From: Woeseiaceae bacterium
GTDB taxonomy: Bacteria; Pseudomonadota; Gammaproteobacteria; Steroidobacterales; Woeseiaceae
Direction of reading: 5' to 3'
Assembly: GCA_965232455.1 (NCBI GenBank)
Contig: OZ246981.1
Coordinates: 3,963,911-4,027,910, forward strand
Length of the DNA: 64,000 nucleotides
Of the stretch, positions 1 through 27,367 are shown piece after piece (the first letter of the stretch is position 1; each line of letters starts with the position of its first letter). A program made the position numbers and the translations under genes. The notes under the pieces were generated by a model. That model saw only the letters and a program-made list of their open reading frames with translations. It had not been told where the DNA came from and did not search any database.

Positions 1-171
1 CAGACGATGCATTCAATCGCCATCGATTTGGATACCGAAAACGTATTCTGACCAGCGTTCAATAACCGGCATCTGCACCGAAAATAACGCCCGGTGCAGC
101 CGCGCGGCTCGGAGTGGTTTTCGATGGGCGTGCTAGAGTAACACTCAAAGACCACGTTCCAGAGGCGCATC

Positions 172-1509
172 ATGGCCAAGCCCCTATGCTTTGTCTTAAT
201 GCCGTTCGGCCAAAAACCGGACGAAACCGGACGGCTGATAGACTTCGACGCCGTTTATGACGACCTTATCAAACCGGCGGTCATTGCCGCCGACCTCGAA
301 CCGATCCGTGCAGACGAAGAGAAGGTTGGCGGGATCATCCACAAGCCGATGTTCGAGCGGCTCGTCATGTGTGAATACGCAATCGCCGATTTGACCACCG
401 CCAATGCGAACGTCTTCTATGAGCTCGGCGTACGTCACGCAGCTCGTCCCTGGACCACGATCGTGGTGTTTGCGGACGGAACCCGCCTGCCGTTCGACGT
501 CGCCCCGCTGCGAGGCATGCCGTACCAGCTCGACAATTCAGGCCGTGCATATCGTGCAGACGATGATTCAGCGGCTCTGACCCGAGTACTGCGGGAAGCC
601 CGCGGTCGGACGAAAGATAGCCCCGTTTTTCAGTTTATCGAGGGCATGCAGGAACAGCAGCTCGATCATGAGAAGACGGACCTGTTCCGGGAACGGATCG
701 ACTACTCGCTGCAGCGCAAGAACCAACTGGCGGAAGCGAGGACGCAAGGCGTCGATGCGATAAAGGAAATAGAGCAAGCGCTGGGGGACCTGGAGGATGT
801 CGAAGCGGGCGTTGTCATCGACCTGCTCCTGTCCTATCGCGCCGTCAAAGCCTGGGAAGAGATGGTGGCGCTGGTGGCGAAGATGCCGCCACCGCTGGCG
901 CGCCTGGTGATCGTCCAGGAACAACTCGGCTTTGCGCTGAATCGGCGAGGCGACCGCCAGCAGGCCGAACGCGTACTGTTGTCGGTGATAAAGGACCATG
1001 GCCCGAGCAGCGAGTCCTTCGGCTTGCTGGGTCGTGTGTACAAAGATCAATGGGATGCGGCGCGGCAAAACAACGATACGATCCTGGCGAAGGGATTGCT
1101 CGACAAGGCGATCGACGCTTACCGGCAGGGCTTTGAAGCGGATTGGCGCGACGCCTATCCGGGCATCAATGCGGTAACCCTGATGGAAGTTCGAGACCCG
1201 CCCGACCCTGCCCGCGAGTCGTTGTTGCCGGTCGTCCGCTATTCGGTGGAGCGTCGGATCGAGTCGGGGCAACCCGATTATTGGGATCATGCCACGCAGC
1301 TGGAACTCGCCGTTCTCGCCAAGGACGAGCAGGCAGCGCTAACGCACCTCGCCAGCTCGGTCGGCGCCATCAGAGAAGTGTGGGAGCCGGAAACGACGGC
1401 GAGGAACCTCAGGCTGATTCGTGAAGCGAGAGAGGAGCGCAATGAAGTCCCGCCCTCCTGGTCCCGCGGCATCGAAGAAGAACTCGAAAAACGGGCACAG
1501 CAGCGCTAG
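172..1509 (+). CDS. Hypothetical protein with an N-terminal Rossmann-like (TIR/deoxyribosyltransferase-like, DUF4071-type) domain and a C-terminal alpha-helical TPR-like region
   Basis: ATG at 172 preceded by AGAGGCG. The N-terminus MAKPLCFVLMPFGQK...YELGVRHA has alternating beta/alpha character. The C-terminal half is helical and repeat-like. Confidence 0.45.
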   Translation: MAKPLCFVLMPFGQKPDETGRLIDFDAVYDDLIKPAVIAADLEPIRADEEKVGGIIHKPMFERLVMCEYAIADLTTANANVFYELGVRHAARPWTTIVVFADGTRLPFDVAPLRGMPYQLDNSGRAYRADDDSAALTRVLREARGRTKDSPVFQFIEGMQEQQLDHEKTDLFRERIDYSLQRKNQLAEARTQGVDAIKEIEQALGDLEDVEAGVVIDLLLSYRAVKAWEEMVALVAKMPPPLARLVIVQEQLGFALNRRGDRQQAERVLLSVIKDHGPSSESFGLLGRVYKDQWDAARQNNDTILAKGLLDKAIDAYRQGFEADWRDAYPGINAVTLMEVRDPPDPARESLLPVVRYSVERRIESGQPDYWDHATQLELAVLAKDEQAALTHLASSVGAIREVWEPETTARNLRLIREAREERNEVPPSWSRGIEEELEKRAQQR

Positions 1510-1712
1510 CTGGACGTCATGACATACTTCAACTGAATGCAGAACTCGGGTTCAACCCGGCGAACGGGCGCCGCAAGGGTAACGTTTGCAGACTATGCTA
1601 TTTGTAGGTCACAGAAAGTCTTGAAGATGACCGCTGCATAAAAAGAAAGCCGGAGCACGAAAAAAACGGGCAGTAAAAATAAAGGCAGCGCTCCGCGAAA
1701 GGAGAACCCAAA

Positions 1713-3764
1713 ATGCACCAAGAGAGGACAATTCGCACGGTCACGATCGAATTTCTGCGGGCCGGGCCACCTCACAATCAGCTGCTGTCGCCGCTGACGC
1801 CGTATCTCGCGGTGTGCGGCGAGGCGGGCGCGACCGTCGTGCACGTGCCGTGGGAGCACGCCCACTTCCTTCGACGCATCGAGGAGATGCGCTACGAGAA
1901 GGGAACCGACGAGGATACGCCGCGCCGCCTCGCTATCCTCGAAGAGACGGGCGCGGAGGTGGCGCGTCTACTGGGACAGATCCCCGCACTCTCGGGCGTC
2001 CTCGGCAGTGACGCCGTTGACGGGGAAGTGCTGCACCTTCGACTCGTCATCTCCGCGTCCGAACTCAGCCTCATCCCCTTCGAGTTGTCGAAGATTCCGT
2101 TTGGCCTGGAGCTACCCGCCGAGAACTGGTTGCTGCTTCAGGCGAACATGCCCGTTTGCATGACGCGCCACGTCCGCAGCGTGCCTTACGGCGGCGTCGC
2201 TTGGGACCGGCGACCGCGGATTCTGTTCGTTGCATCGGATCCGGAGGAACTCCCTTACGAAGAACACCGGAACGCTCTGCTGGAGGCCGTCAGACCGTGG
2301 CTGCATCCCGGACAAGAGAAGAGACCGACGGTTCGCAAGGTCGATGGGGAACGTCGCGCGTATTATTACGGGGATATTCTCACGGTGATGCCCGACGCCA
2401 AGATTCAGGACGTCCAGACGCTCTGCGAGCGGCACACCTACACGCACGTGCATGTGCTCGCCCACGGTGGTGTCGACGAGATGGCGGAAAAGCTCGCCTA
2501 TGGAATCGGGCTCTACGGCGAGATCATTACGGGCGGCCGCTTTGCCTCGGCCATCACCACGAGCACCGACCGGCGTATCGAGCGGCCGGCCGTCGTGACC
2601 CTCGCCTCCTGTGACAGCGCGAACGTCGGTTCGGTGATATCCGCCGGCGCCAGCTTTGCACATGCGCTGCACGAGGCGGGCGTGCCGATGGTCGTTGCTT
2701 CACAGTTCCCGCTGAGCTTCGAGGGCTCCACGACGGCGGTTCGGCGTATGTACGGTGAGCGCGACGGATTTTTGTGGGGCTGCAACCCCCTGTTCATGCT
2801 CCACGAGATCCGCCGTTCACTACAGATCATCAACGAGGCGCACTCCCACGATTGGGCCAGTGTGGTCGTCTTCGAGGCGCTCCCGCCTGACCTTCCCGGA
2901 CAACTTGCGACGTACGGCCACAATCAGGCCGCCCGCGGCCTCAAAGCGGCCGAAAAGCTGCTTCAAAAGGCTGACGAGAATATACCCGATAGCGCGTACG
3001 AACTCGTACACGATCAGCTAACCGCTGCCCGCGGCGCGTGCACTCGAGCGCGCGGAACGCTTGGCGCGAGCGGGCCCTATGCGATCGAAGCACTCGCCCT
3101 GAAAGGGGCCAACTACAAGAAACTCGCGGAGGTCGAGTTCCGGCTCGGAGCGAAACCCAGACTGGGGGCCGAGAAACGAGGGCTTCATTTGCGCCGCTGT
3201 CACGATGCATTGGACAGCGCGTACGAGCAGTATCGCAATGCCGTCTCGAGATTCATGAATCCCGAGACCGGCAGCCAGATGAAAGCGCAACTGCACTATG
3301 TATGCGTGCAGATGCTCGCCCTTGGCACGATACTGGGCAAGGAAGAAATAACCGACGGCTATTGGGAAGTCGCGCGAATCTCGGCGCGCGCCCACACGCG
3401 TTTGCCCAGCGACGAAGAGCGCGCCTGGGCGCTCGGCACGCTGCTCGAACTCAACCTCCTCGGCGTCGCCGATCCCACTCTGGGTCCGCACGCCGCCTCG
3501 GCGGACTACAGGCTGAAAGCTATCGGGCATGCGAACGCGCTCGTAGACCTGTTTCCCAAGCGTGGCGAGTTTCCCGTCTACTCCACCTATCGGCAGCTGC
3601 GTCGCTACGTACGCTGGTGGAGCGCCGCTTCGTTCCTGGCCCAACTGGAACACGAGGGCATCGAACGACGATGGGACGTCAAAGACTCCTGGAAAAACAC
3701 GGTCGAGGTCGCCCGGGAACTCCAGTCAATTCTCGAACCGCGAATCTGGAAATCTCAGAGATAG
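1713..3764 (+). CDS. CHAT-domain (caspase-like) protease with an alpha-helical C-terminal region
   Basis: RBS AAAGGAGAA. The His/Cys dyad motifs HVHVLAHGG and VVTLASCDSANVG are typical of CHAT/caspase-fold peptidases. Confidence 0.7.
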   Translation: MHQERTIRTVTIEFLRAGPPHNQLLSPLTPYLAVCGEAGATVVHVPWEHAHFLRRIEEMRYEKGTDEDTPRRLAILEETGAEVARLLGQIPALSGVLGSDAVDGEVLHLRLVISASELSLIPFELSKIPFGLELPAENWLLLQANMPVCMTRHVRSVPYGGVAWDRRPRILFVASDPEELPYEEHRNALLEAVRPWLHPGQEKRPTVRKVDGERRAYYYGDILTVMPDAKIQDVQTLCERHTYTHVHVLAHGGVDEMAEKLAYGIGLYGEIITGGRFASAITTSTDRRIERPAVVTLASCDSANVGSVISAGASFAHALHEAGVPMVVASQFPLSFEGSTTAVRRMYGERDGFLWGCNPLFMLHEIRRSLQIINEAHSHDWASVVVFEALPPDLPGQLATYGHNQAARGLKAAEKLLQKADENIPDSAYELVHDQLTAARGACTRARGTLGASGPYAIEALALKGANYKKLAEVEFRLGAKPRLGAEKRGLHLRRCHDALDSAYEQYRNAVSRFMNPETGSQMKAQLHYVCVQMLALGTILGKEEITDGYWEVARISARAHTRLPSDEERAWALGTLLELNLLGVADPTLGPHAASADYRLKAIGHANALVDLFPKRGEFPVYSTYRQLRRYVRWWSAASFLAQLEHEGIERRWDVKDSWKNTVEVARELQSILEPRIWKSQR

Positions 3765-3775
3765 GGGGAGGGACA

Positions 3776-4915
3776 ATGGCGAAGAAGAAGAAAAGCACGC
3801 CTGGGGCGACGAAACGCAAAACGACGACGCGCAAAAAGACGGCCGCCGGCAAAACCGTGTTCAGCATCGACATGCTTCCCGCCGACCACGGCGACTGCTT
3901 GATCGTCACCTACGGTAACGGCAAAAAACTATCGCGCATTCTCATCGACTGCGGGACTTCGGGCACCGCCGATCGCCTGCAGGCCAAGCTGCGCACGCTC
4001 AAGCCGAGTATCAAGGACTTCGACCTCTTCGTGCTGACACACGTAGACGCCGACCACATCGGCGGCACTATCGACTTCTTCAACGAGGGCGCAGGGGGAC
4101 TATCGTTCGAGGACGTGTGGTTCAACGGCTGGAAGCACCTGCCAAGGAGACGCCTGAGCGCGAAGCAGGGCGAGATCTTTACGACACTGATCGAGGACAA
4201 CAAGCTGCCCTGGAACAAATGGATGAACGGCAAGGCCATTCTGCTGAAGGGCGGGGACCTGCCTGTCACGACATTAAAAGGCGGCATGAAGATAACGCTG
4301 CTCTCCCCGACCCTCAAGAAGCTCGAGTCCCTGTCGCCCGTCTGGCAGAAAGAACTCGACAAACACGGTTTCGGCGGCGACAAGGCGCGCAAAAGATATT
4401 ATCGCCAGTTCCTGGGCGGCACGACGCCAACGATGAGTAACGTCGAGAAGCTGGCAAACTCGAAATTCGGCGCGGACGGCAGCAAACCCAACGGCAGCAG
4501 CATTGCGTTTCTTGCCGAATATGGCGGCAGGCGCGTGCTGTTTGCTGGAGACGCTCACGCCTCGGTCTTAAAATCCTCCATCTCAAAATTGTTGGACGAG
4601 TCCGCCGAGGCACGCCTGAAGCTGGACGCGTTCAAGCTGCCACACCACGGCAGCCGCGCGAACGTCAGTGCCGACCTCGTCAAATTGCTGGACTGCGAGC
4701 ATTATCTGATATCGACCAGCGGCGCGTATTTCAAGCATCCCGACGGAGAGGCAATGGCGCGCGTCGTCATACACGGCGGAGAACAACCTACACTGCACTT
4801 CAACTACCGCACGAAGTACAACGAGTTCTGGGGCACGGCCGCCGCTCAAAAGAAATTCGGCTACCGCACGAAGTTTCCGCCGAAAGGTAAGGAAGGTATT
4901 ACGGTCGATTTGTAG
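3776..4915 (+). CDS. Metallo-beta-lactamase fold hydrolase
   Basis: RBS GGGAGGG lies 6 nt upstream of ATG 3776. The HxHxDH motif (LTHVDADHIGG) is present, plus later His/Asp ligands (KLPHHGS). The six-frame ORF is longer, but the true start is MAKKKK. Confidence 0.7.
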   Translation: MAKKKKSTPGATKRKTTTRKKTAAGKTVFSIDMLPADHGDCLIVTYGNGKKLSRILIDCGTSGTADRLQAKLRTLKPSIKDFDLFVLTHVDADHIGGTIDFFNEGAGGLSFEDVWFNGWKHLPRRRLSAKQGEIFTTLIEDNKLPWNKWMNGKAILLKGGDLPVTTLKGGMKITLLSPTLKKLESLSPVWQKELDKHGFGGDKARKRYYRQFLGGTTPTMSNVEKLANSKFGADGSKPNGSSIAFLAEYGGRRVLFAGDAHASVLKSSISKLLDESAEARLKLDAFKLPHHGSRANVSADLVKLLDCEHYLISTSGAYFKHPDGEAMARVVIHGGEQPTLHFNYRTKYNEFWGTAAAQKKFGYRTKFPPKGKEGITVDL

Positions 4916-5322: not shown

Positions 5323-7092
5323 ATGAATGAAGTATCGCTAGCAACGCGCAGCTATGAAATCCCCCGCAACAGCGCGTGGTCTGGTAAAAGACCGCGCCGC
5401 GCGTCGATCGTGATGGTTTCAACGGCCGCCGCCGTGCTTTGCGGCTGCTCGTTGTTCGATCCCTATGTCAGCGCGACCGGCCCCGAGGTCGACCATCCGA
5501 TCACTACAGGCGTCAGACTGCCTGCCTGCGAAGCAATGGAGATCAGCGCCAACAGGAGTAACACACTGGCCTGTGCTTTGGGCTGGCAGAACGCGTATCG
5601 CGGCGCATTGAAATCTCAGGCGAAACTGAACTCGTACTCGGGTACGACATTGATCCTTGCCGCCGCCACCGCTTTGGGCATGAGCGGTACCGGTGAAACC
5701 GGCGACGGTATTGTCTGGATCGGCGCCGGGAGTGCGGGAATTTACGGAGCGACGTCATGGCTCACCAGCAAGCCCAGGGAAGCTGCGTACATAGCCGGCA
5801 TGAAGGCAATGAGTTGTGCGGTCACCGTGACGCGACCGCTGATGCTCAGCCAGGCAACAAGCGACTCACTGGACGCAAAGCTGACGGCCCTTCGCGATGC
5901 GCTCGCGGCGGCGCGAACCGCCCTTCGGCAGGCAACGGCGGCGACCCGGAGTTTCGAGGCGGCAAACCCGACCGGCAGCGGGGCTGCCACGATACTGTCC
6001 CGTAGCAACGATATCCTCGCCGCGGCCGACACCGAGATCTCGGGCGCGGCCTTGAATTACGAATCCGGCCTGGAGCTGCAGGTCGCGACCGCCGAAGCGC
6101 CGGGGGCGCTTGCCGCGGCGATTCGCCGCATCAGCGCCGAGGTTGACGAACTGATATCGAAAACGACCGCCGACATACAAGCGCTTCCGGGACTGATCGA
6201 CGGTCTCGCCGGTCTGTCGGGCAGCTTCACTCCGCAAGTGCAGGTAGAAGCCGATCGCGCCGACGATGTAACGGGCGTGGAAGTCCAGGCTGAGAACCTC
6301 CTGGCCGACGAACTGCGTAACAGCATTGAAACCCTGCAAACGGCGCTCGATGCCCTAGGAGCCGCGGCCACGGACGTAAGAGTACTGACGGGCGCCGCCA
6401 GACCGAAGCTGACGCAGGCGGACCTCGACGGCTGCAACATCGACGAATCGGCGATTGAAACGGATATCCGGTTGGTTCCAGACACGATCAGTAACATCGC
6501 CCCCAATACCGCGTTCACTCGAACGATAATGATAAGCGGCGGGAAGGCGCCGTACATGGCGGAAATTCTCGAAGCGCCGGTTGCCAATCTGGCCATCAGC
6601 CAACCTCAGCCGTTCGGGCCACGTGTACAAATTCGGGGTGAGAGCGGCATCCCGGCCGGGACCTATACGGTTTTTATTGCCGATGCGTCGGGTCACCAGC
6701 AGTCGTTAACGCTTACGATTCCGCCTGCCGGCGGCGGCGACGGCGGTTCCGGCGCGGAGAACCAAGGTCAGCCCGAAGACGACTTTGCAGCCAGCGCGTG
6801 TCCCGATGCGGTCAGACAGTCCGATGGATTCAACGAACTGACCGCCTTCGAGGCCGAACTCGACACCAATACACCGCGCGTCGAATGCCTGCAGCAAGCG
6901 TTGGGTATGAGCGGCGACGACGTAGACGGCGACATTGGGCCACGGACCCGCAGCGCACTTTGCCAGCGGGAAATCGTATTGGGTCGTGACGCAACGGGCA
7001 AGTTTGAAGAAGCGTTTGTCGAAGAGCTGATCGCTCAGTGGCTCAATACGCCGGAGGGTACCGGGGCGGTATGCGACGCCGAGCCGACATGA
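5323..7092 (+). CDS. Lipoprotein with Ala-rich coiled region and C-terminal peptidoglycan-binding domain
   Basis: Lipobox VLCGCS follows a basic N-terminus. The C-terminus LQQALGMSGDDVDGDIGPRTRSAL resembles PG_binding_1. Confidence 0.5.
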   Translation: MNEVSLATRSYEIPRNSAWSGKRPRRASIVMVSTAAAVLCGCSLFDPYVSATGPEVDHPITTGVRLPACEAMEISANRSNTLACALGWQNAYRGALKSQAKLNSYSGTTLILAAATALGMSGTGETGDGIVWIGAGSAGIYGATSWLTSKPREAAYIAGMKAMSCAVTVTRPLMLSQATSDSLDAKLTALRDALAAARTALRQATAATRSFEAANPTGSGAATILSRSNDILAAADTEISGAALNYESGLELQVATAEAPGALAAAIRRISAEVDELISKTTADIQALPGLIDGLAGLSGSFTPQVQVEADRADDVTGVEVQAENLLADELRNSIETLQTALDALGAAATDVRVLTGAARPKLTQADLDGCNIDESAIETDIRLVPDTISNIAPNTAFTRTIMISGGKAPYMAEILEAPVANLAISQPQPFGPRVQIRGESGIPAGTYTVFIADASGHQQSLTLTIPPAGGGDGGSGAENQGQPEDDFAASACPDAVRQSDGFNELTAFEAELDTNTPRVECLQQALGMSGDDVDGDIGPRTRSALCQREIVLGRDATGKFEEAFVEELIAQWLNTPEGTGAVCDAEPT

Positions 7093-7141
7093 AGGATACG
7101 GCCGGGTTTTCGCCGGTACCGGCCCCATGATTCGGGGAGGA

Positions 7142-8218
7142 ATGGCAGTACGCCGCACGGACGGCGAGCCTGGAACCTGTGGCGTCATCGTTCAAAGTCG
7201 GCACGATCCTGGAAAAGTATTCGTGCTCAGCAACGCTCATGTCCTCGCGTTTGCCGGCAATCTTGCCGCAAGAATTGGCGACGATATTCTTGAAGGCACA
7301 TCGGGCAACACTGTTATCGCCGAACTCGAGGCGTGGTCCGGTTTGTTGAGTGGCGAATCACTTACCGATGCGGCAATCGCCCAGGTCAATCAACCTGACG
7401 ATGCCGAGTTCTCGATTGTCGATCTCGGCCGGCCCCGGTACGACCCCGCCGTTCGCCCATTTGTCGGGATGCCGGTGCGCATGCGCGGCGCACCCGGCGA
7501 ATTGATCACCGCGACGGTACATCGCACACAGGCGTCACAAGACCATTCCCTGTTCATTCCAATGCGCGGCGAGATGCAGGTTCGTTTTTCGGACCAGCTG
7601 GTAATCAAGTACGACACTCCGCGTCCCGCACTGCTGTCCGGATACAGCGGTTCGGCGGTCGTTGACGAGAATAACCACCTGCTGGGCCTGTTCTGGATGG
7701 GCAGCCGAAACTTCGGTCTTGTTTGCAAGATCGAACATGTCTTCGAGGAGTTCCAGGTAAACCTTGCCGGCAACGTTGCGGCTGTCCCCGCATCAGCGGC
7801 CAGTTTGGCGGCGCCCGGCGACGATACGGTTGACATACTGGCAAAAACCGTATGGGGAGAGGCTCGGGGCGAACCCCCCGAAGGCAGAGAGGCCGTTGCT
7901 TCGGTTATTGTCAATCGGGCGGCGCGCCGTCCCGCGGCGTGGTGGGGATCCACGATAAAAGAGGTCTGTCTGAAGCCGTGGCAATTCTCGTGCTGGAACG
8001 AAAACGATCCGAACAGGGCATTACTCGACAGCGCGCACGAAACGGAAGAATTCGGGGAGATCGAGAGAATTGCGCAGTTGGCCGTAGAGGGCAACCTGAC
8101 AGACCTTACCGACGGAGCCACTCATTACCATACTCGAAACATCAATCCGCACTGGTCTGCAAACAAGCAACCGTGTGCGGAAATCGGCGATCACAAATTC
8201 TATAACGACATCGAGTAG
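7142..8218 (+). CDS. Trypsin-like serine protease fused to SleB/CwlJ-type cell wall hydrolase domain
   Basis: GGGGAGGA RBS before ATG 7142. The N-terminal half has NAHVL (His) and GYSGSAV (Ser) chymotrypsin-fold motifs. The C-terminal half has the WGEARGE...VIVNR...CWNENDP...THYHT Hydrolase_2 signature. Confidence 0.6.
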   Translation: MAVRRTDGEPGTCGVIVQSRHDPGKVFVLSNAHVLAFAGNLAARIGDDILEGTSGNTVIAELEAWSGLLSGESLTDAAIAQVNQPDDAEFSIVDLGRPRYDPAVRPFVGMPVRMRGAPGELITATVHRTQASQDHSLFIPMRGEMQVRFSDQLVIKYDTPRPALLSGYSGSAVVDENNHLLGLFWMGSRNFGLVCKIEHVFEEFQVNLAGNVAAVPASAASLAAPGDDTVDILAKTVWGEARGEPPEGREAVASVIVNRAARRPAAWWGSTIKEVCLKPWQFSCWNENDPNRALLDSAHETEEFGEIERIAQLAVEGNLTDLTDGATHYHTRNINPHWSANKQPCAEIGDHKFYNDIE

Positions 8219-8242
8219 CTCTTCAGACTCGGGAGGCCGTTA

Positions 8243-9190
8243 ATGACCAGCATCAACGCGTACGACTTTGAGCAAGCCAGCGCAAAAGCGTTCAGGGGTG
8301 GTTCAAAAGCCGAGCAAGACTGCCAGAAGATGATCTCACGCCTGAACCTGAAGGACGAAATGAACGGGCCGATCGGTACGCTCGGGCCCCTTTTCAAGGA
8401 ATATGTGACCGAGATTCAGCGAAACATCGTCTGGTATCAAAGCAAACTGTGGCGGGAGCGCCTCAAGAGAGCGTGGTACATCATCTTCAGCTTCGCGTTG
8501 CTCATCACCGTGCCCATCTTTGTCGTGTTCATTCCCGAGTTGGTGCAGAGGTTTGTCGCCACGGGGAACGACCCGACAGTCCAAAACGTGACAGCCCAGA
8601 ACGTGACAGCGCAGTTAACTGCCGTACTTACATCGCTGCTGGCGCTTCACCGCACCGTGTCAACATGGCTCGACAAGCGTAAAGTCGCCGGTCGCTGGGC
8701 GCAGACCAGCGCCCAGCTGAAAGAATTGGTCTGGTCGTTTCACCGTGAATGGGATCCGCGTGACATTACGCCGGCCGTGAAAGGCGAACTGGAAAAGAGA
8801 CTGCGGGACGACATCGCCAAGGCCAGAAAACTGACAAGCGACGAACAGGTGTTTTTCTTCGAGAACATGTCATACCCGAACATCGATATTGCGTCCGTAC
8901 TGAAGTCGAGTCGCGCGGCAGCCGAGCAAATCGTTACCGACAACGCTTCGGCAGAAATCAAAAGAATGGACGAACAGGCCAAACGGAGGATGGCTGTCTC
9001 GAGGGCTCAGGCGCTGGTCAATGAATACCGCGCACTGATTGAGGAGCGACAGGCGGAGTTTCGCGACGCTCTCGCCGATAACGACAAGGCGAAGATAACG
9101 AGGCTGAACAGCGAACTGGGCGACCTCTACAAGAAGTTGAACGCTGCAGAGCTCGACAGGGCGACCGCGTTGGCCGACGCCGCACAATAG
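8243..9190 (+). CDS. Membrane protein with two hydrophobic helices and a C-terminal coiled coil (possible SLATT-like 2TM effector)
   Basis: RBS GGGAGG. TM1 is AWYIIFSFALLITVPIFVVFIP and a second amphipathic helix is LTAVLTSLLALH. The C-terminal 150 aa are heptad-rich. Confidence 0.35.
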   Translation: MTSINAYDFEQASAKAFRGGSKAEQDCQKMISRLNLKDEMNGPIGTLGPLFKEYVTEIQRNIVWYQSKLWRERLKRAWYIIFSFALLITVPIFVVFIPELVQRFVATGNDPTVQNVTAQNVTAQLTAVLTSLLALHRTVSTWLDKRKVAGRWAQTSAQLKELVWSFHREWDPRDITPAVKGELEKRLRDDIAKARKLTSDEQVFFFENMSYPNIDIASVLKSSRAAAEQIVTDNASAEIKRMDEQAKRRMAVSRAQALVNEYRALIEERQAEFRDALADNDKAKITRLNSELGDLYKKLNAAELDRATALADAAQ

Positions 9191-9238
9191 CACGGTATGA
9201 ATTCGGGCTGAGCGGCGCATCCACCGAAGAACGGTCCT

Positions 9239-11065
9239 ATGAAAACCGCAGAACGCTGGGATAAGAACACGCTGGGCGAATTGATGAACTTCATGGCGCC
9301 CGCCCTCTGGCGCGGGAAGAGCGTTCCGCGAGTCCTCGCACAGCGTCGACGGGCCCCGGGGTGGCCACCGGACGTGTTTGCGATGTGCGCCGCAGCGTTG
9401 CATGCGACGGGGGCGCATCGAAGACTGTTCTCGGACAAAGGGGTTGGCGACCATCCCGTGGCCGATACACACAGCTGGCCGCGTCGGGCCAGAGAAATTG
9501 GCGCGTCCTGGAAGGACGCCATAAACAGCCTCAACCGTGACCAGTTGGACAAGGGGAACGGGAACCGGTCTCTTGCCTCGCAGCTCAACGCCAACCCGGC
9601 GCTGCTGAAAAACCGTTCCGGCGAGCTGGACGAGTGGTGGCGGCGATTGATCCATTTCGGCCAGACTCCGCTCGCCGACCTCTTCGACCATGAAGAGATT
9701 CCGGCGTTGTTGATGCAGATCCTCGTGGTGGCGGATGAGGCGTCGGCGGGCATAGGAATTACGCGCTTCAAGCGTAACAGGACTTTTCTGATGTTTGTCG
9801 ACAGCGCAATGGCCGGCAACCGGAATCGCAGTTGTTGCGCCGACGTCTCATTGCAAAGAGCGAGCGTGCTTCCGAAACAACATACGCCGACCAAAGGTCT
9901 GACGCTGCGATCGTTGACTCACCATCTCTCTTATGTTCCTTCGAGCGGCGTGTCGGTAGAGTGGCTGGGGCAACTGGAAAACCGGTCGGATAGTGATGAA
10001 CCGCAGACTGAGGTCAATTTGTTATTGGCCCCCTGGCCGGTGAAATTCTCACCATCCAACTTCCATAGCCTCGATTCGGGATTCGCAGGCGACTATGAAC
10101 TTTTCGGTTATTGGCCGGAGTCGGATGCAGATGACGAGAAAAACGGACGTGAATGTCAGGCGCTCACGCACTATCTCGACGAGGCGTACAGACAAGCACT
10201 TTTTCACGTAGACAAACTTCACATGCTGGTCATGCCGGAAATGTCGGTTACCCAGCGCCAATACGCTACCGTGGTCGAACCCTGGGCAATTACCAAGGGG
10301 GTTGCCGTTGTGGCTGGTGTGTGCGACCGCAAGCAGGGAAAGGACCGGATGTTGCACTACAACCGCTGCATACTGCAGACAGGCGGGCTTTCCAAGCTCA
10401 GGGACCGGTGGGGTGACCTGAGTGTTGGAGAGGCCATCCCGAAAGGAAACCCGCTCGCGGAATTTCGAGTCGAGCAATCCAAGCACCATCGGTGGTTGTT
10501 GGATCGGTCGCAGATAGTCCAGTACGGACTGAGCGGCCGCATTCCGGCGTTCATTGGCAGGAAATACTGGGAAGATATCTGCATTGACGAGAATCACATG
10601 AAAATCGTGACCGTTCTCGGCTGGCTAACCTGCGGAGCGTTGATTTGTGAAGACCTGGCCAGACAGGACAACGTGTCCGAAACCATCCGATCAATCGGAC
10701 CCAATCTCATGATCGCCATTCTGATGGACGGCCCACAGATCAGGCAGCGTTGGCCGGCCAAGTATGCGTCTGTCCTTGCGGAAGACCCGGGCTCCTCGGT
10801 GCTCACGCTGACCAGTCTTGCCATGACGCACATGAGTCGACCCGCTCCGGGCCACGTTGACCGGTCCGGAGTGGTTGCGCTCTGGCACGACGCCCAGCAT
10901 GGCGAGGTGGAAATTGAAATGACCGGGAAACAAAACGCCGCCGTCTTGAGTCTAATCCGGCACGGGGCGGAGGAACTTACAGCCGATGGTAGAAGTGACG
11001 ACGGGGTCGCATACCAACCGGTGTTCGCAGGCTACAATGGTCTCGAGGTTTCGCCAAATCAATGA
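9239..11065 (+). CDS. Large protein with C-terminal carbon-nitrogen hydrolase (nitrilase superfamily) domain
   Basis: Putative E-K-C triad context: LVMPEMS (Glu), HYNRC (Lys region) and GALICEDL (Cys). The N-terminal 300 aa show no recognisable similarity. Confidence 0.45.
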   Translation: MKTAERWDKNTLGELMNFMAPALWRGKSVPRVLAQRRRAPGWPPDVFAMCAAALHATGAHRRLFSDKGVGDHPVADTHSWPRRAREIGASWKDAINSLNRDQLDKGNGNRSLASQLNANPALLKNRSGELDEWWRRLIHFGQTPLADLFDHEEIPALLMQILVVADEASAGIGITRFKRNRTFLMFVDSAMAGNRNRSCCADVSLQRASVLPKQHTPTKGLTLRSLTHHLSYVPSSGVSVEWLGQLENRSDSDEPQTEVNLLLAPWPVKFSPSNFHSLDSGFAGDYELFGYWPESDADDEKNGRECQALTHYLDEAYRQALFHVDKLHMLVMPEMSVTQRQYATVVEPWAITKGVAVVAGVCDRKQGKDRMLHYNRCILQTGGLSKLRDRWGDLSVGEAIPKGNPLAEFRVEQSKHHRWLLDRSQIVQYGLSGRIPAFIGRKYWEDICIDENHMKIVTVLGWLTCGALICEDLARQDNVSETIRSIGPNLMIAILMDGPQIRQRWPAKYASVLAEDPGSSVLTLTSLAMTHMSRPAPGHVDRSGVVALWHDAQHGEVEIEMTGKQNAAVLSLIRHGAEELTADGRSDDGVAYQPVFAGYNGLEVSPNQ

Positions 11066-11436: not shown

Positions 11437-13779
11437 CTATTTTTCGCTACCGGTTGAATCTTTCGCAAGCGCCTGCGCCTCCTCCATCAATGCCGCCGAA
11501 CGCTCGGCATCGCCGGTCGCCCGCGCGTATCTTGCCTGCAGCTCGAGAATCTTCGCGCTGGGTTCCTGCTCGATGACGTACCCGAGCAGCGGTTCGACGG
11601 CCGCGGTGTTTCCCTGATCGAGATACAGATTTGCGAGTTTTACCGCGATCTCCGTTTTCTCGGAGGAGAAACCCGTCGTCTCGACGTGCTCCAGCGCCTG
11701 TTCATAAAACTGAACGGCCTGGGGTACGTTCTCCTTCAACACGGCAACGTCCCCCGCGTACTGCATCGCTTCGATCGCGGGCTCGGGAAAATCCTCGGCC
11801 AGCGCGTCCGCAAGCACGGCGTGAATGCGTGACTCGGCGTCGTCGAGCTTGTTCTCGTCCTTGTCGAGCAGCGCCAGGCGCAGTTCGACCTGTGCGGCCC
11901 TGGAGCGATCTTCGATGGAAATGAAGACGTCACGTGATTCGGCAAACGCTTCGCGGGCGGCGGACATGTTGCCGAGCCCACGTTCCGCGGCCGCGAGCTG
12001 GGCGAGACCGGTGGCGATGAACAGTGCGTCGTTGGCCTCGCGCGCGATCTCGACCGCTTCGCTGGAGGCGGCTCTCGCATCCTCGAAGCGGTCCTCCCGC
12101 TCGTAGAGAACGGACAGCATGCCGAGGATCCGCCCCTGTCCGACGCGATCACCGATGTCGCGCCGGATGGCAAGCGACTGTAAATGCAGGTCTTCCGCTT
12201 CGACAAACCGCCCCTGCAGACGGCGCAGGAAGCCGTAATTGTTCAGCATCATGGCTTCGTTGCGCTTGTCGCCGATGCCGCGGAAACTGACCAACGCATC
12301 GTCGAGGTGCTCCTCGGCTTCGTCGAGTTTCCCGTCGTTCATCGCAATGTTTGCGAGCGTCGAATAGATCTGACCGGGCAGGAGCTCCCATTCGATTTGT
12401 CGAAAGGCGAGCGTCGCGCGCGCCAGCAGGTCGCGCGCCAGGGCGAAGTCGCGACGGTCCTTCGCGAGGATGGCCATCGAAACGGACAGGCGTCCGATTT
12501 CCAGCTTGTCGTCCACGCGTTCCGCGATCTCGATGCCCTGCCGATAGGTCGCGTCCGCCAGCTCGAGCCGCCCGGTGCGGTGATAGACCGTGCCGAGCTT
12601 GGCCAGGACTTCGGCATGCAGGCTGTCGCTGTTTTGCACGTCGTCACCGTCGAGAATGCGTTTGAACGCGGCCTCGGCCTCCTCCCATTCGCCTAAACGA
12701 TACGCGCAGTCGGCACGCCCGATGCGGGCGCGCGTCACGCCCTGGTTGCGCGCCAGCACGACGTCGAACAGGGGTTTTGCCTCGGCGCAGCGGCCCTCGA
12801 GTGCAATGCTCATCGCGCGCGCGTACGCCTCGTTGATGAACGGGTCGTCGTCGATTGCGTCGATGCCTTCGGCCAGCGCCTGGCGCCGGCCGCTCAACAG
12901 CGTCGTCACGCCGCGAACCATGCCTTGAACGAGCGCGGTGCTTTGCTCCGACACCATCGTGGAGCGGTTGCGCCGCCCGTCGTTTCCCACCAGCGTGTAA
13001 TTCAGCCGCAGCCCGCCGACCGTCTGCTCCAGTTCCGAGACCAGCACGTGACTTGCTCCGTGCGAGCGGCGGAGCCGATCGATGTGCGCCTCGGCGTCGG
13101 CCGCGTCGAGGCTGCCGCTCCAGCCCATGTTCTCGACGAAGCTGACGACGTCGGCGGCGCGGACGACGTTCAGTTGGGCGGCGTCGACGAACAGGTCGTT
13201 GGCCAAACCCATCAAGCCGAACTTCGCCCAGCCGAGGTCGGCGTCATCGGTGTTGTTGACGACAGGTAACACCGCGATGCGGACGTTGCCGTCGTCCACC
13301 GGTTGGCGCCAGAGCGCCGCGATGCCGACGGCAAGCAGAACGGCCGCGGCCAGTAACAGCCGGCGCAGCCGGGAAGGCATTCTGCTCCCGGAAGCCTCCG
13401 CGGTCGATCGCGCGGCCGGTTCGGCGGCCTGCCCGGTGTCCCTCACGTCCTCCTCGAGCGGCGCGATGAACTGGTAGCCGTGCCCGTGCACGGTGCGGAT
13501 CACCGCCTGCTCGTCGGCGTCGTCGCCGACGGCCCGCCGGGCTTTCATGATGGCCCGGGTCAGCGACGTCTCGGACACGACCACGGTTTTCCAGACCGCG
13601 TCCTGGAGAGCGTCCTTGTCCACCGCCCGGTGACGCTCCTCGATCAGGAACGCCAGCAGATCGAAGACCCTGGGCTCCAGCTGAACCTGCTTGCCGCCCC
13701 GGGTGAGCCGGCGAGTGTCGAGATCGAACTCGCAGTCGCGAAATCGATAATACTTTTTTGCATCGGGCGCCACGGTCAT
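11437..13779 (-). CDS. Winged-helix (OmpR/CadC trans_reg_C) membrane-anchored transcriptional regulator with TPR repeats
   Basis: The N-terminus YRFRDCEFDLDTRRLTRGGKQVQLEPRVFDLLAFL is a trans_reg_C DNA-binding domain. A single TM segment and many TPR-like repeats follow. Confidence 0.65.
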   Translation of the reverse strand: MTVAPDAKKYYRFRDCEFDLDTRRLTRGGKQVQLEPRVFDLLAFLIEERHRAVDKDALQDAVWKTVVVSETSLTRAIMKARRAVGDDADEQAVIRTVHGHGYQFIAPLEEDVRDTGQAAEPAARSTAEASGSRMPSRLRRLLLAAAVLLAVGIAALWRQPVDDGNVRIAVLPVVNNTDDADLGWAKFGLMGLANDLFVDAAQLNVVRAADVVSFVENMGWSGSLDAADAEAHIDRLRRSHGASHVLVSELEQTVGGLRLNYTLVGNDGRRNRSTMVSEQSTALVQGMVRGVTTLLSGRRQALAEGIDAIDDDPFINEAYARAMSIALEGRCAEAKPLFDVVLARNQGVTRARIGRADCAYRLGEWEEAEAAFKRILDGDDVQNSDSLHAEVLAKLGTVYHRTGRLELADATYRQGIEIAERVDDKLEIGRLSVSMAILAKDRRDFALARDLLARATLAFRQIEWELLPGQIYSTLANIAMNDGKLDEAEEHLDDALVSFRGIGDKRNEAMMLNNYGFLRRLQGRFVEAEDLHLQSLAIRRDIGDRVGQGRILGMLSVLYEREDRFEDARAASSEAVEIAREANDALFIATGLAQLAAAERGLGNMSAAREAFAESRDVFISIEDRSRAAQVELRLALLDKDENKLDDAESRIHAVLADALAEDFPEPAIEAMQYAGDVAVLKENVPQAVQFYEQALEHVETTGFSSEKTEIAVKLANLYLDQGNTAAVEPLLGYVIEQEPSAKILELQARYARATGDAERSAALMEEAQALAKDSTGSEK

Positions 13780-13906
13780 TACATCGTCACCGTATCGTCA
13801 GACGTCCGTCACGACTCGCCGCGCGTTCTCCGCGACACTGCGCCCATGCTCAATGAGCGTAGTGATTTCAACGACTTGTAATGAGATTCGCAACGGAGGA
13901 ACCATC

Positions 13907-14668
13907 ATGAAACGTTTATTCGTCCTGGTGTACGGCATTGCGTCCTATGCCGTGTTTTTCGCCACCTTCTTATACGCGATCGGCTTCATCGGTAACCTGA
14001 TCGTACCAAAATCGATCGATTCAGTGCCCGAGGCCCCGATCGGCACGGCCCTGTTCGTGAACCTGCTGCTGCTCGGCGTGTTCGCCGTCCAGCACAGCCT
14101 GATGGCGCGGCCGTTCTTCAAGCGCTGGTGGACCCGGATCGTGCCGCCCGCCGCCGAGCGTAGCACCTACGTGCTGTTCTCGAGCCTGGCACTGATCCTG
14201 TTGTTTGCGCTCTGGGAGCCGATGGGCGGCGTAATCTGGTCGATCGAGAGCACGCCTGGCCGCTGGGCCGCGCACGGTGCGTATGCATTCGGCTGGCTGC
14301 TGGTGCTGTTCAGCACCGTCGCGATCAACCACTTCGATCTGTTCGGCCTGCGCCAGAGCTGGGCTTATTTCCGCAATCGCGAGATGGAGCCGCTCGAGTT
14401 CGTACAGCCCTGGATTTACCGTGTCGTTCGTCATCCGCTGTACGTCGGCTGGTTCTTCGTGATGTGGTCGACGCCGACGATGACCGTCGCGCATCTGGTG
14501 TTCGCCCTGGCGACGAGCATCTACATACTGATCGCGATCCAGTTCGAGGAGCACGATCTCAAGAACGCGCATCCTGAATACGCGGAGTACAAGCGGCGGG
14601 TGCCGATGCTCATCCCATCGCTGACCCGGTTCGTCAAACCCAAGCAGGTGCAGGAGGCGGCCCAATGA
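13907..14668 (+). CDS. Isoprenylcysteine carboxyl methyltransferase family membrane methyltransferase (MddA-like)
   Basis: GGAGG RBS before ATG 13907. Multi-TM protein with RHPLY and EE..L motifs typical of ICMT/PEMT-type methyltransferases. Confidence 0.55.
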   Translation: MKRLFVLVYGIASYAVFFATFLYAIGFIGNLIVPKSIDSVPEAPIGTALFVNLLLLGVFAVQHSLMARPFFKRWWTRIVPPAAERSTYVLFSSLALILLFALWEPMGGVIWSIESTPGRWAAHGAYAFGWLLVLFSTVAINHFDLFGLRQSWAYFRNREMEPLEFVQPWIYRVVRHPLYVGWFFVMWSTPTMTVAHLVFALATSIYILIAIQFEEHDLKNAHPEYAEYKRRVPMLIPSLTRFVKPKQVQEAAQ

Positions 14669-14871
14669 GCGCCGCGAGCGCGGGCGTCCCGGTGAGTCGC
14701 CGCCGCTGGCTCGGACGCCTGGGAATGGCCGGCTTTGCCTTCTTTTTCGTCAAGGGATTGCTCTGGTTGATCGCACCGTTCGTTTTTTACTGGCTCACGT
14801 AAGGAATCTGCGCGAGGCGCCCCGGCGCCGAGCGTAACACCGACACCATCAACCTGCTTAGGGAAACCATC

Positions 14872-15606
14872 ATGAAAAGTGTAATGAAAAACATCGTAAG
14901 AAATGCATTCGTCGGCTCGGTCCTGTTTACGATCACCGCCGTCGCGTTCGCCGACGACGACAGGCGCGCGTACGGACGCAGCTTCGGCGCAAGCGCCGTG
15001 ACTGTCTGGTGGGTGATCTTCAACGCGCCGGAAAACTGTTACGGCAGCCCGGACCCGGACGCGAACTGCACCAGTCTCGACGTGTTCGGCGCGGCGTTCC
15101 TGGAATCGATACAGAACGGTTCGCCGGACCCGTCGCTGATCGCTCCGAACATGGCGACCAAGCCGGCGGTGCTTTACGCGACCGGCGACGTCACCGATTA
15201 CCGTGGCCGCGTTCGCCTGGCCGCGTCGATCTACAGAGTTGCGGAAGGTACGCAGCAGTCGCTGCCACCCGGCGTCGACCCGATGGGCTTCGGCCGCGGC
15301 TACGAGAACGAAGGCGCCGAGGTGCACCTCGTGGTTCGCGATCACGGTCGGGTGAAACGTCGCGACCTGCTGCCGCAGATCACCAACTTCCTCGACCCGT
15401 ACTGCTCGGACCCGAACCTGCTGTACTTCGCCGGCAAGAATCTCTGCGCCGATACGCATTTCGCCGTATTCGGCGCCGAGGAGGCGGGTGAGGACGCCGT
15501 ATACGCCTTCGCCGACATGCGGCCGGTCCGCCGCGCCAGGGCGACGCTGTTGCGTGACGGTGACGTTATTCGCGCAGTGATCGAAACGCGGATCAGGAAG
15601 CGGTGA
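14872..15606 (+). CDS. Secreted hypothetical protein
   Basis: N-terminal signal peptide ending AFADDD. A terminator hairpin follows. Confidence 0.4.
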   Translation: MKSVMKNIVRNAFVGSVLFTITAVAFADDDRRAYGRSFGASAVTVWWVIFNAPENCYGSPDPDANCTSLDVFGAAFLESIQNGSPDPSLIAPNMATKPAVLYATGDVTDYRGRVRLAASIYRVAEGTQQSLPPGVDPMGFGRGYENEGAEVHLVVRDHGRVKRRDLLPQITNFLDPYCSDPNLLYFAGKNLCADTHFAVFGAEEAGEDAVYAFADMRPVRRARATLLRDGDVIRAVIETRIRKR

Positions 15607-15637
15607 ATCACGGTTTGACGTGCACTGTAGTAACGAG

Positions 15638-15669
15638 GCCCTTGTCGCAGAGTCGGCAAGGGTCTTTTT
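15638..15669 (+). terminator. Rho-independent terminator between convergent genes
   Basis: Stem GCCCTTG/CAAGGGT with a 12-nt loop, followed by CTTTTTC. Confidence 0.5.
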
Positions 15670-15711
15670 CGATTGGACGTCGATGAGCGATGTTTACGGT
15701 AAAGAGCCGCT

Positions 15712-26525: not shown

Positions 26526-26603
26526 CAACTCCTACCTGCTCCACCACCCAGATGAGTCGTCCAGGCGACGACGGCGGACTGTTAATCCGCGCTGAGCGAG
26601 GTT
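26526..26603 (+). tRNA. tRNA-Asn(GTT)
   Basis: Acceptor CCCAGAT/ATCTGGG, anticodon arm GCGGA-CTGTTAA-TCCGC, T-arm CGAGG-TTCGAGT-CCTCG, encoded CCA. Directly abuts the previous tRNA. Confidence 0.7.
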
Positions 26604-26604
26604 C

Positions 26605-26678
26605 GAGTCCTCGATCTGGGGCCAAGGCTCTGTGGTGAAATGGGATCACATGCCCCTGTCACGGGCAATTCCGGGGAT
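26605..26678 (+). tRNA. tRNA-Asp(GTC)
   Basis: Acceptor GGCTCTG/TAGAGCC, D GTGA..TCAC, anticodon arm TGCCC-CTGTCAC-GGGCA, T-loop ATCGAAA, CCA. Confidence 0.75.
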
Positions 26679-26684
26679 CGAAAC

Positions 26685-26755
26685 CCCGTAGAGCCGCCAA
26701 ACAACTGTCCGGGTACGGGGTACAGCCGGTCCTTACAAGACCAGCTTGCTGAGTT
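26685..26755 (+). tRNA. tRNA-Val(TAC)
   Basis: Acceptor TGTCCGG/ACGGACA, anticodon loop CTTACAA, T-arm CTGAG-TTCGAGT-CTCAG, CCA. Confidence 0.55.
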
Positions 26756-26762
26756 CGAGTCT

Positions 26763-26848: not shown

Positions 26849-26852
26849 CGAG

Positions 26853-26928: not shown

Positions 26929-26934
26929 CGTTAC

Positions 26935-27066: not shown

Positions 27067-27067
27067 C

Positions 27068-27144: not shown

Positions 27145-27150
27145 CGTAGC

Positions 27151-27219: not shown

Positions 27220-27220
27220 T

Positions 27221-27290: not shown

Positions 27291-27292
27291 CG

Positions 27293-27356: not shown

Positions 27357-27367
27357 GCGAATCACTC

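Follow-up and report, generated by a model that had tools for sequence, protein, structure and literature searches.

In type VIII Thoeris, the TIR protein ThsB makes cyclic ADP-ribose (cADPR) and ThsI, annotated as 'CMP hydrolase and TPR', arrests growth when cADPR is supplied, a response reported for the canonical form of the molecule (bioRxiv 10.64898/2025.12.03.692087). In type IV Thoeris, a TIR is paired with the caspase-like ThsE and the signal is N7-cADPR. The prediction of TPR-centred TIR systems, with caspase among the partner genes, is credited to Burroughs & Aravind 2020 in bioRxiv 10.1101/2023.05.26.542521. That preprint reports that BcTpr (TIR-like domain plus TPR), and not its TIR partner, converts NAD+ to a cADPR isomer, and that BcTpr alone gave no protection, the TIR partner being needed. 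The two preprints conflict over this ThsI/BcTpr-type protein: a cADPR-type signal is received by it in one (10.64898/2025.12.03.692087) but made by it in the other (10.1101/2023.05.26.542521). Finally, a protease–MBL effector module has already been characterised with trypsin: in Hachiman-MBL, the MBL of Avs1a type is a DNase that inhibits itself until the protease cuts two loops, and one Avs1a-associated-type MBL is a DNase that is inactive on RNA, beta-lactam and choline esters (bioRxiv 10.1101/2025.09.03.673762).

Layout of the locus and the ThsI-like protein

We analysed a 64-kb stretch of DNA from a Woeseiaceae bacterium (hereafter the window), at the left end of which a sequence-only reading had placed a candidate defence module. 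The three genes that it named are real and co-directional, P1 (445 aa), P2 and P3 (379 aa) all lying on the + strand:

1..51, + strand: upstream ORF, 3' end, cut by the window edge (translation …QTMHSIAIDLDTENVF*)
172..1509, + strand: P1, ThsI-like protein with a TIR-like / CMP-hydrolase / nucleoside-deoxyribosyltransferase (NDT)-like N-domain, then a helical TPR-S sensor of the ASK1 type
409..429, + strand: NVFYELG motif of P1 (residues 80-86), with E84 as predicted catalytic Glu
850..1185, + strand: TPR-S core of P1 (residues 227-338; Pfam PF20308, E 2.4e-26, model 1-102, its full length)
1510..1712, + strand: P1-P2 intergenic spacer, 203 nt, with an AGGAG ribosome-binding site in the sequence ahead of the P2 ATG
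1713..3764, + strand: P2 (683 aa), caspase-like protease of the CHAT type, carrying a TPR-S-like helical domain at its C-terminus
2445..2630, + strand: P2 segment with the catalytic dyad, H251 (within HVHVLAHGG, residues 245-253) and C300 (within ASCDSANVG, 298-306)
3036..3617, + strand: sensor domain of P2 resembling TPR-S, roughly residues 442-635
3776..4915, + strand: P3, MBL-fold hydrolase of the defence-associated Avs1a / LmuA / ComEC-like type, probable DNase
4040..4057, + strand: HxDxDH metal-binding motif of P3 (H89-V-D91-A-D93-H94)
4544-4558 and 4643-4654, + strand: further P3 motifs, AGDAH and HHGS respectively

The true start of P3 is the ATG at 3776, internal to a longer mechanical ORF; it stands 11 nt after P2, behind a strong GGGGGAGGG Shine-Dalgarno sequence. 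The tight linkage originally described thus holds for the CHAT-to-MBL junction but not for P1 and P2, whose 203-nt gap makes their linkage looser than had been implied. Scanning of this spacer gave no promoter or terminator consensus, and its RNA fold is ordinary (z = -0.6 in a fold scan).

The by-eye description of P1 as DUF4071-like and TPR-bearing was borne out: P1 matches Pfam MAP3K_TRAF_bd (formerly DUF4071) at E 5e-49 and TPR-S at E 2e-26 (92.7 bits for PF20308, cut-off 27.6). As in the TPR-S conflict systems (PF20308), its TPR-S is fused to an effector-type enzyme domain. In this domain E84, Y83, G86, D73 and N80 are invariant across 30 homologues, and E84 is presumably the catalytic Glu of the NDT/TIR-like fold, as in NDT-family enzymology. 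Judged by these domains, P1 has the architecture of ThsI, the effector of type VIII Thoeris. The likeness, one of domain architecture, lies in the CMP-hydrolase/NDT-like domain and the TPR domain predicted by the Aravind group; unlike type VIII, P1 is followed here by CHAT and MBL genes, which are foreign to that system, and is seen without a TIR gene in the window, where the upstream flank is cut off. The TIR-like + TPR-S core equally recalls the TPR-centred systems, and the partners TIR, patatin, calcineurin-like phosphoesterase and caspase-type protease match the list relayed in bioRxiv 10.1101/2023.05.26.542521. BcTir/Tpr, by contrast, is a two-gene TIR+Tpr operon without protease or MBL.

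The CHAT protease, its C-terminal domain and the MBL hydrolase

P2 and P3 had been correctly recognised as a CHAT protein and an MBL fold (Pfam CHAT PF12770, E 1.5e-15; Lactamase_B, E 1e-12). Peptidase_C14 (PF00656) gave no match in P2 at E <= 0.1, nor in 31 family members at E <= 1. The His and Cys put forward as the catalytic dyad, H251 and C300, are invariant across 31 homologues, together with H245, H247, G252 and D301. On the other hand, P1 is not the only sensor, and P2 carries a TPR-S-like domain of its own. The C-terminus of P2 aligns with TPR-S (hhalign 95.6%, E 1.2e-8, null controls included) and this alignment brings together residues that are invariant in P2 and P1 (E459~E281, K469~K291, Y507~Y317, W572~W371 and E579/L580~E378/L379). 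P2 itself stays below significance against Pfam TPR-S and the homology is one of profile comparison, while a homologue of the P2 family, P0375, clears the Pfam TPR-S cut-off. At this level of comparison, we consider the C-terminal domain of P2 to be a divergent TPR-S sensor. In a search of 1.84 billion representative proteins, none of the ten odd-length matches that were Pfam-scanned carried this domain on an effector other than CHAT: nine are CHAT(-MBL) fragments truncated at the N-terminus, and the tenth is P0375, a longer CHAT+TPR-S protein.

These features bring P2 near type IV Thoeris, with which it shares a caspase-fold protease, a C-terminal putative ligand-binding domain and, in homologous loci, linkage to TIR genes. 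It differs in being a CHAT (PF12770) and not a Peptidase_C14 (PF00656) protease, in the TPR-S-like nature of its C-terminal domain, and in being paired or fused with an MBL and, elsewhere, with a calcineurin-like phosphoesterase. In SAVED-CHAT proteins, the SAVED domain binds cyclic oligoadenylates, unlike the TPR-S of P2. In Craspase (type III-E CRISPR), the TPR of the TPR-CHAT protein Csx29 is N-terminal and docks on Cas7-11, whereas the helical domain of P2 is C-terminal to CHAT; a TPR-CHAT protein with Cas7-11/gRAMP was not found here, Cas domains being absent from the Pfam-scanned nearest neighbours.

Among the best 120 homologues of P2, the majority measure 1050-1120 aa (about 1070 aa) and carry both CHAT and Lactamase_B, laid out as CHAT–helical domain–MBL in a single protein; Bradyrhizobium sp. 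ARR65 has one such fused homologue. The split P2/P3 form is kept in the closest clade, with gaps of 10-54 nt. The Lys/Arg/Thr-rich N-terminal tail of P3 is equivalent to the linker found in the fused homologues, and the HxDxDH, AGDAH and HHGS motifs recur in the consensus of these proteins. P2 and P3 are one unit, the split counterpart of a CHAT–TPR-S–MBL protein that is widespread as a single chain. The CHAT family of P2 occupies 345 loci in a set with one representative genome per species, and in 24 loci a calcineurin-like phosphoesterase replaces the MBL as partner of the CHAT–TPR-S protein.

P3 gave strong PADLOC matches to LmuA (PDLC03854, E 2.5e-74, residues 29-365), Avs1a (8e-47) and RTasMBL (5e-44). 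Its match to NCBIfam Avs1a (E 2e-66) reaches 224 bits for an equivalog cut-off of 420, and P3 is therefore an Avs1a homologue, not an equivalog. Its closest solved relatives are the MBL domains of ComEC, and a weak Pfam match was seen to the anti-Pycsar protein Apyc1 (E 0.023). P3 is thus a homologue, along its whole length, of the Avs1a and LmuA models of the trypsin-MBL modules (AVAST type 1, Hachiman-MBL/HamMAB, short pAgo, retron, Lamassu), and as in those modules its gene directly follows that of a protease, most relatives fusing the two. Here, however, a CHAT protease stands in the place of trypsin, and the sensor is a TPR-S domain, not a STAND NTPase, helicase, SMC or Argonaute. The partner genes that define AVAST type 1, Lamassu and Craspase are absent, and membership of these systems was rejected on that ground; Cas and CD-NTase annotations are likewise absent from the eight neighbouring gene products covered by the Pfam scan.

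Gene neighbourhoods and the search for a TIR gene

The trio had been proposed as a neighbourhood that might be conserved elsewhere, and comparison across genomes went against this. P2 relatives at 85-88% identity lack P1 and have an unrelated membrane protein or a patatin upstream instead; over the family, the gene upstream of CHAT varies between patatin, Tle1-like lipase, TIR-TPR and membrane protein. Conversely, P1 relatives at 82-86% identity lack CHAT and MBL, and one of them, at 86% identity, is flanked on either side by TIR genes, with CHAT missing. Across 80 loci with a close homologue of P1, no P3-like MBL was found. The trio P1/P2/P3 is, in the light of these comparisons, not a fixed unit, and P1 is a facultative neighbour.

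The neighbourhoods nevertheless sustain the defence context that had been proposed, which the LmuA and Avs1a matches of P3 also indicate. TIR genes adjoin CHAT in many homologous loci, and TIR/TPR-S genes reach a density of 1.36 per 10 kb in the first kb beside the CHAT unit, against 0.1 per 10 kb at 5-10 kb, a more than 10-fold enrichment. P1 and CHAT are linked as well: a P1-like gene occurs no more than 10 kb from CHAT in 12 of 80 loci, and of 80 loci with a close homologue of P1, 6 have a CHAT-family gene next to it. A TIR or TPR-S gene lies within 3.5 kb in 28 of 75 CHAT loci; in about 60% of the 75, both are absent over that distance, so that the CHAT–MBL protein may function without one. 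A single co-directional array of Paraburkholderia caribensis MBA4, whose CHAT is calcineurin-paired, comprises Metallophos, CHAT, a P1 homologue and SIR2-TIR. In four loci, TIR_2–TPR proteins are encoded upstream of CHAT–MBL and on its strand, the position that P1 has here, with gaps of 16-46 nt, and their TPR part aligns with the TPR-S of P1 (hhalign 84%, E 7.5e-6). Beside a 76% identical P1 homologue lie a TPR-S–trypsin fusion, an S8 peptidase and an LmuA/Avs1a-type MBL, in what appears from the domains to be a non-homologous replacement of the protease.

Around P1 homologues of 60-63% identity, the flanking TIRs match both validated type VIII ThsB TIR domains (E down to 4e-23). With these two domains and a TIR HMM as queries, no TIR gene was detected in the 64-kb window, whose edge truncates the gene immediately before P1. 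This ORF, ending at nt 51, is a candidate site of a TIR or other partner gene. Its C-terminus showed no similarity to the C-termini of genes neighbouring P1 homologues, its 16-aa C-terminal peptide gave only chance matches as a query, and the upstream region of the 82% identical P1 homologue has no similarity to that of the window.

Proposed cascade, competing explanations and flanking genes

On balance, we lean towards P1 and P2+P3 being two effector arms of a TIR/NAD+-derived-signal (Thoeris-like) module, each gated by TPR-S. In one arm, the TPR-S of P1 would bind a cyclic ADP-ribose-type signal and the NDT/CMP-hydrolase-like domain, its catalytic Glu intact, would then hydrolyse nucleotides or NAD+. 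In the other, the signal would be bound by the TPR-S-like domain of P2, switching on the caspase-like protease, which would cleave P3, and maybe other proteins, thereby releasing or activating the MBL DNase. The outcome would be abortive infection. The signal might come from the N-domain of P1 or from a TIR gene, located past the left edge or at some other place in the genome.

Alternatively, two independent systems may share a defence island, P1 belonging to a type VIII Thoeris system, or a remnant of one, with its TIR outside the window and the self-contained CHAT–MBL sensing its own trigger, perhaps a phage protein or a different small molecule, through its helical C-terminal domain. The occurrence of the closest homologues of P1 and of P2 without each other, the 203-nt gap, the roughly 60% of CHAT loci with no TIR/TPR-S gene nearby and the variable CHAT-upstream gene are all consistent with such independence. 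It accounts poorly, however, for the crowding of TIR/TPR-S genes into the first kb beside CHAT, for the recurrence of the layout with a trypsin protease fused to TPR-S, and for the homology of the P2 domain to the P1 sensor, which argues for a shared ligand class; we regard separate systems as rather unlikely, if a serious contender. The reported synthesis of a cADPR isomer from NAD+ by BcTpr (bioRxiv 10.1101/2023.05.26.542521) raises instead the idea of a closed three-gene system needing no TIR, in which the TIR-like N-domain of P1 makes the isomer when infection is sensed, the TPR-S of P2 senses it, and CHAT and then the MBL act. P1 retains the invariant catalytic Glu and is placed as the TIR_2–TPR proteins are beside CHAT–MBL in the four loci, with TPR parts that align, and the window holds no TIR gene. 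Yet where type VIII Thoeris has been validated, cADPR comes from the TIR and ThsI responds (bioRxiv 10.64898/2025.12.03.692087), BcTpr was not protective without its TIR partner (bioRxiv 10.1101/2023.05.26.542521), and the closest CHAT–MBL relatives have no P1, so that we find a closed system improbable.

The role of P3 can also be read otherwise, as a phosphodiesterase that degrades the ADPR-derived signal, as the calcineurin-like phosphoesterase would elsewhere, with a reset or threshold function in place of that of a nuclease effector. The exchange of MBL for calcineurin-like phosphoesterase in 24 loci, the presence of cyclic-nucleotide phosphodiesterases in both folds and the weak Apyc1 match point that way, and Burroughs & Aravind assumed this role for the calcineurin partner according to bioRxiv 10.1101/2023.05.26.542521. 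We hold it to be very improbable, as the strong full-length matches of P3 are to LmuA/Avs1a-type MBLs, the nearest solved structures are ComEC nuclease domains, and an Avs1a-associated-type MBL is a proven DNase (bioRxiv 10.1101/2025.09.03.673762).

The trio had been called an undescribed system. The literature covered, with Burroughs & Aravind 2020 itself outside its scope, contains no description of a CHAT+MBL+Thoeris or CHAT+TPR-S combination; CHAT and lactamase annotations are absent from the Thoeris survey supplements and TPR-S is unmentioned in two eLife papers of the Aravind laboratory. The ThsI architecture, the TPR-centred TIR systems and the trypsin-MBL module are known, however, and the trio seems to combine, in a new way, anti-phage parts that are already known. 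If the two-arm reading is true, TIR-derived cADPR signalling, caspase-like executioner proteases and protease-activated MBL DNases would be joined in one module, and a function would be assigned to the unannotated C-terminal half of the CHAT family. More tentatively, and at somewhat below an even chance, the CHAT–TPR-S–MBL proteins and their calcineurin-paired relatives could be unrecognised, widespread Thoeris-type effectors, in which a TIR-made ADPR signal would act through TPR-S on a protease and then on a phosphoesterase or nuclease; the cascade would here be co-encoded with a ThsI paralogue of its sensor, one signal firing two effectors. TPR-S is also a domain of the animal ASK1 apoptosis signalosome, so that a bacterial TPR-S gating a caspase-fold protease would bear on the origin of cell-death signalling; in the central regulatory region of ASK1/MAP3K5 it is kinase-coupled, whereas in the bacterial proteins it is hydrolase- or protease-coupled.

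Among the flanking genes, PADLOC gave no significant STAND or helicase match for six genes of the region. A 315-aa membrane protein (8243-9190), considered as an effector of the SLATT/DUF4231 type (ThsH-like), showed no similarity and was rejected. A 589-aa protein encoded downstream has a weak PADLOC match to LmuB (E 0.004).

Gene layout and the ThsI-like protein P1

Preceded by an incomplete reading frame, the first three genes of the window genuinely form a set of defence type, a new variation on known parts.

ends at nt 51, + strand: upstream ORF, incomplete, cut by the window edge
172-1509, + strand: P1, ThsI-like protein, 445 aa
1713-3764, + strand: P2, CHAT caspase-like protease, 683 aa
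3776-4915, + strand: P3, MBL-fold hydrolase, 379 aa

The sequence-only reading had proposed a co-directional, tightly linked defence trio. The common direction and defence character hold, as does the tight linkage of P2 and P3 (11-nt gap, with a strong Shine-Dalgarno sequence before the P3 ATG), but P1 and P2 are separated by a 203-nt spacer, in which a scan revealed no promoter or terminator consensus and an ordinary RNA fold.

P1 matches the Pfam families MAP3K_TRAF_bd (former DUF4071; E 5e-49) and TPR-S (PF20308, an ASK1-type helical sensor domain; E 2e-26), and its residues 54-122 match a TIR effector model of PADLOC, in agreement with the TIR-like N-domain and TPR array read earlier. The motif NVFYELG, including E84, which we take to be at the catalytic Glu position of NDT-family enzymes, is invariant across 30 homologues; the family has thousands of members and is very conserved, with 60-65% identity across phyla. 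Type VIII Thoeris comprises a TIR protein making canonical cADPR and the effector ThsI, annotated 'CMP hydrolase and TPR', whose TPR domain was predicted by Aravind's group to act in TIR signalling (both per bioRxiv 10.64898/2025.12.03.692087). With the two type VIII TIR domains given as validated in Table S1 of that preprint as queries, we found, in at least 10 loci, TIR genes directly beside P1 homologues of 60-63% identity (E down to 4e-23). Because P1 has a ThsI-type architecture and type VIII-matching TIR genes lie beside its homologues, we filed it as ThsI-like on architecture and genomic context, ThsI being known here from its description.

The P2/P3 pair and its putative sensor domain

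P2 and P3 form one unit. Most of the best 120 P2 homologues are single proteins of 1050-1120 aa carrying CHAT and Lactamase_B, the size of P2 and P3 together (683 + 379 aa). Since the closest clade (85-88% and 52% identity) likewise keeps the two as separate genes, the split does not stem from a sequencing error. H251 and C300, previously picked out as the catalytic residues of P2, are both invariant among CHAT homologues. In PADLOC, P3 matches LmuA over its full length (2.5e-74) and also Avs1a and RTasMBL, while its NCBIfam Avs1a score of 224 bits is below the 420 cut-off; among solved structures, the MBL domains of ComEC are its nearest relatives, and the HxDxDH, AGDAH and HHGS motifs are all retained.

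Four concordant lines of evidence identify the C-terminal half of P2 as a TPR-S-like domain. Comparison of a CHAT-family C-terminus profile (74 sequences) with a TPR-S family profile (40 sequences) gave a probability of 95.6% and an E of 1.2e-8 over 152 columns, pairing P2 442-635 with P1 264-419, against an E of about 0.8 for reversed-sequence controls; smaller alignments had earlier given 88% and 3e-6. Family-invariant residues of P2 and P1 coincide in this pairing (E459 with E281, K469 with K291, Y507 with Y317, W572 with W371, E579/L580 with E378/L379). When 31 CHAT homologues were searched singly against Pfam, TPR-S was the sole recurrent family beyond CHAT and MBL (6 members, best E 0.0016). 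Finally, one homologue retrieved with the P2 C-terminal domain carries CHAT and TPR-S at 27.9 bits, above the Pfam cut-off of 27.6, and its TPR-S stretch (729-820) overlaps the query-matched segment (753-919). This putative sensor domain is the most useful new point: with a CHAT protein carrying its own TPR-S-like domain, a cascade from a cADPR-type signal to protease to nuclease would be directly testable.

Neighbours of P1 and P2 homologues

A check of the trio's conservation across genomes found no fixed unit; the closest P1 and P2 homologues have other neighbours. The 85% identical CHAT homologue lies between an unrelated membrane protein gene upstream and a TIR gene downstream, the 88% identical one (locus L085) has a patatin upstream, with several TIR genes and a further CHAT paralogue in the vicinity, and the 52% identical one follows a divergently oriented Tle1-like lipase gene. 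P1 homologues are flanked by a TIR gene on either side, with no CHAT gene (86% identical), or preceded by a TPR-S–patatin gene (82%). The most telling case is the 76% identical P1 homologue, where the window layout recurs with another protease: trypsin, fused to TPR-S, is encoded next to it together with an S8 peptidase and an LmuA/Avs1a-type MBL. L085 is a very dense TIR-associated island, in which, within 10 kb, three TIR genes are accompanied by a Tle1-like lipase and a patatin; its CHAT+MBL pair is directly followed, at 13260-16229, by the further CHAT paralogue, which is divergent and 643 aa long, and by a DUF4062 protein.

Among 75 non-redundant CHAT-family loci from many phyla, the CHAT protein is fused or adjacent to an MBL, or is MBL-less with a calcineurin-like phosphoesterase immediately upstream (24 loci), which appears to replace the MBL partner. 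Recurrent direct neighbours are Tle1-like lipase, patatin, TIR_2–TPR and TIR-like–TPR-S genes. The density of TIR or TPR-S genes drops from 1.36 per 10 kb within the first kilobase of the CHAT unit to 0.1 per 10 kb at a distance of 5-10 kb, and 28 of the 75 loci have such a gene within 3.5 kb. A P1-like protein lies within 10 kb of CHAT in 12 of 80 loci retrieved; conversely, of 80 loci around close P1 homologues, 6 contain a CHAT-family gene, all six calcineurin-paired and none with a P3-like MBL. In the cultured Paraburkholderia caribensis MBA4, a co-directional array comprises calcineurin-like phosphoesterase, CHAT, GDSL lipase, a P1 homologue (61% identical), SIR2-TIR and STAND NTPase. The phosphoesterase (~500 aa) had no PADLOC match; its gene overlaps the MBL-less CHAT–TPR-S gene that follows by up to 3 nt or precedes it by up to 16 nt. 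In betaproteobacterial MAGs, a distinct class of TIR-like+TPR-S proteins (668-713 aa) adjoins CHAT–MBL genes; its extra C-terminal domain (~200 aa, GGGACGGD motif, without Pfam match) might be SLOG/LOG-like.

L047 4047-5555: calcineurin-like phosphoesterase
L176 976-2484: calcineurin-like phosphoesterase
L005/L016/L022 7230-9294, - strand: 668-713 aa class
L011, L032, L037, L070, + strand: 668-713 aa class

Proposed mechanism and flanking genes

The trio is best read as a Thoeris-like module whose two arms are each gated by TPR-S. In one, P1 would act as a ThsI-type hydrolase of nucleotide or NAD+; in the other, P2 would be a ligand-gated caspase-like protease that releases or activates P3, a putative MBL DNase. 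This model builds on the observed homologies, CHAT–MBL fusion and genomic linkage, and we infer the ligand identity, CHAT activation and P3 cleavage by analogy with type IV and type VIII Thoeris and trypsin–MBL work.

That P1 and P2/P3 are two independent neighbouring systems is rather unlikely. A closed three-gene system, its signal generated by P1, is less probable still. In its favour, a TIR-like+TPR protein is reported to produce a cADPR isomer itself (bioRxiv 10.1101/2023.05.26.542521), and no TIR gene was found in the 64-kb window, where the gene upstream of P1 is cut by the edge; in type VIII Thoeris, by contrast, cADPR is produced by the TIR protein and ThsI is the responder (bioRxiv 10.64898/2025.12.03.692087). 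Given a phosphoesterase in place of the MBL partner elsewhere, P3 might be imagined as a signal-degrading phosphodiesterase and not a nuclease, which we consider highly improbable beside its LmuA match; the Avs1a-type MBL of the Hachiman-MBL system is an auto-inhibited DNase, activated through two-loop cleavage by an adjacent trypsin-like protease (bioRxiv 10.1101/2025.09.03.673762).

Among the parts compared with known systems, P1 has the architecture that defines ThsI of type VIII Thoeris, although no TIR gene is seen beside it, the upstream gene being cut off. Type IV Thoeris does not fit: P2 is a CHAT protease where that system has a Peptidase_C14. P3 is homologous to the MBLs of Avs1a/LmuA systems, but their trypsin/STAND, helicase or SMC partners are absent here. 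The earlier statement that this exact trio is not a described system stands in that neither the literature search nor the Thoeris survey supplements yielded a description of a CHAT–TPR-S–MBL effector; it needs qualifying in that P1 has the ThsI architecture and that TPR-centred TIR systems with partners including patatin, calcineurin and caspase were, according to bioRxiv 10.1101/2023.05.26.542521, predicted by Burroughs & Aravind 2020.

Directly 3' of the MBL gene are four co-directional genes (5323-11065, 24-48 nt from one another), encoding a 589-aa protein with a weak peptidoglycan-binding match, a 363-aa fusion of trypsin-like peptidase and SleB-type cell-wall hydrolase, a 315-aa membrane/coiled-coil protein in which no similarity to a DUF4231/SLATT-type protein was found, and a 608-aa protein without match in Pfam or PADLOC. 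Just past them, a convergent gene (11437-13779, - strand) encodes a 780-aa SARP/BTAD-type regulator lookalike that combines a Trans_reg_C domain of the winged-helix type with an extended TPR_12 array. Dense tRNA arrays are often a sign of phage-derived or mobile DNA; the window holds one of 18 genes on the + strand (26547-30892), with duplicated anticodons for Asp, Val, Ile, His and Lys and some unusually short genes (68-71 nt), and a further tRNA-Leu 4 kb past it (35195-35273).
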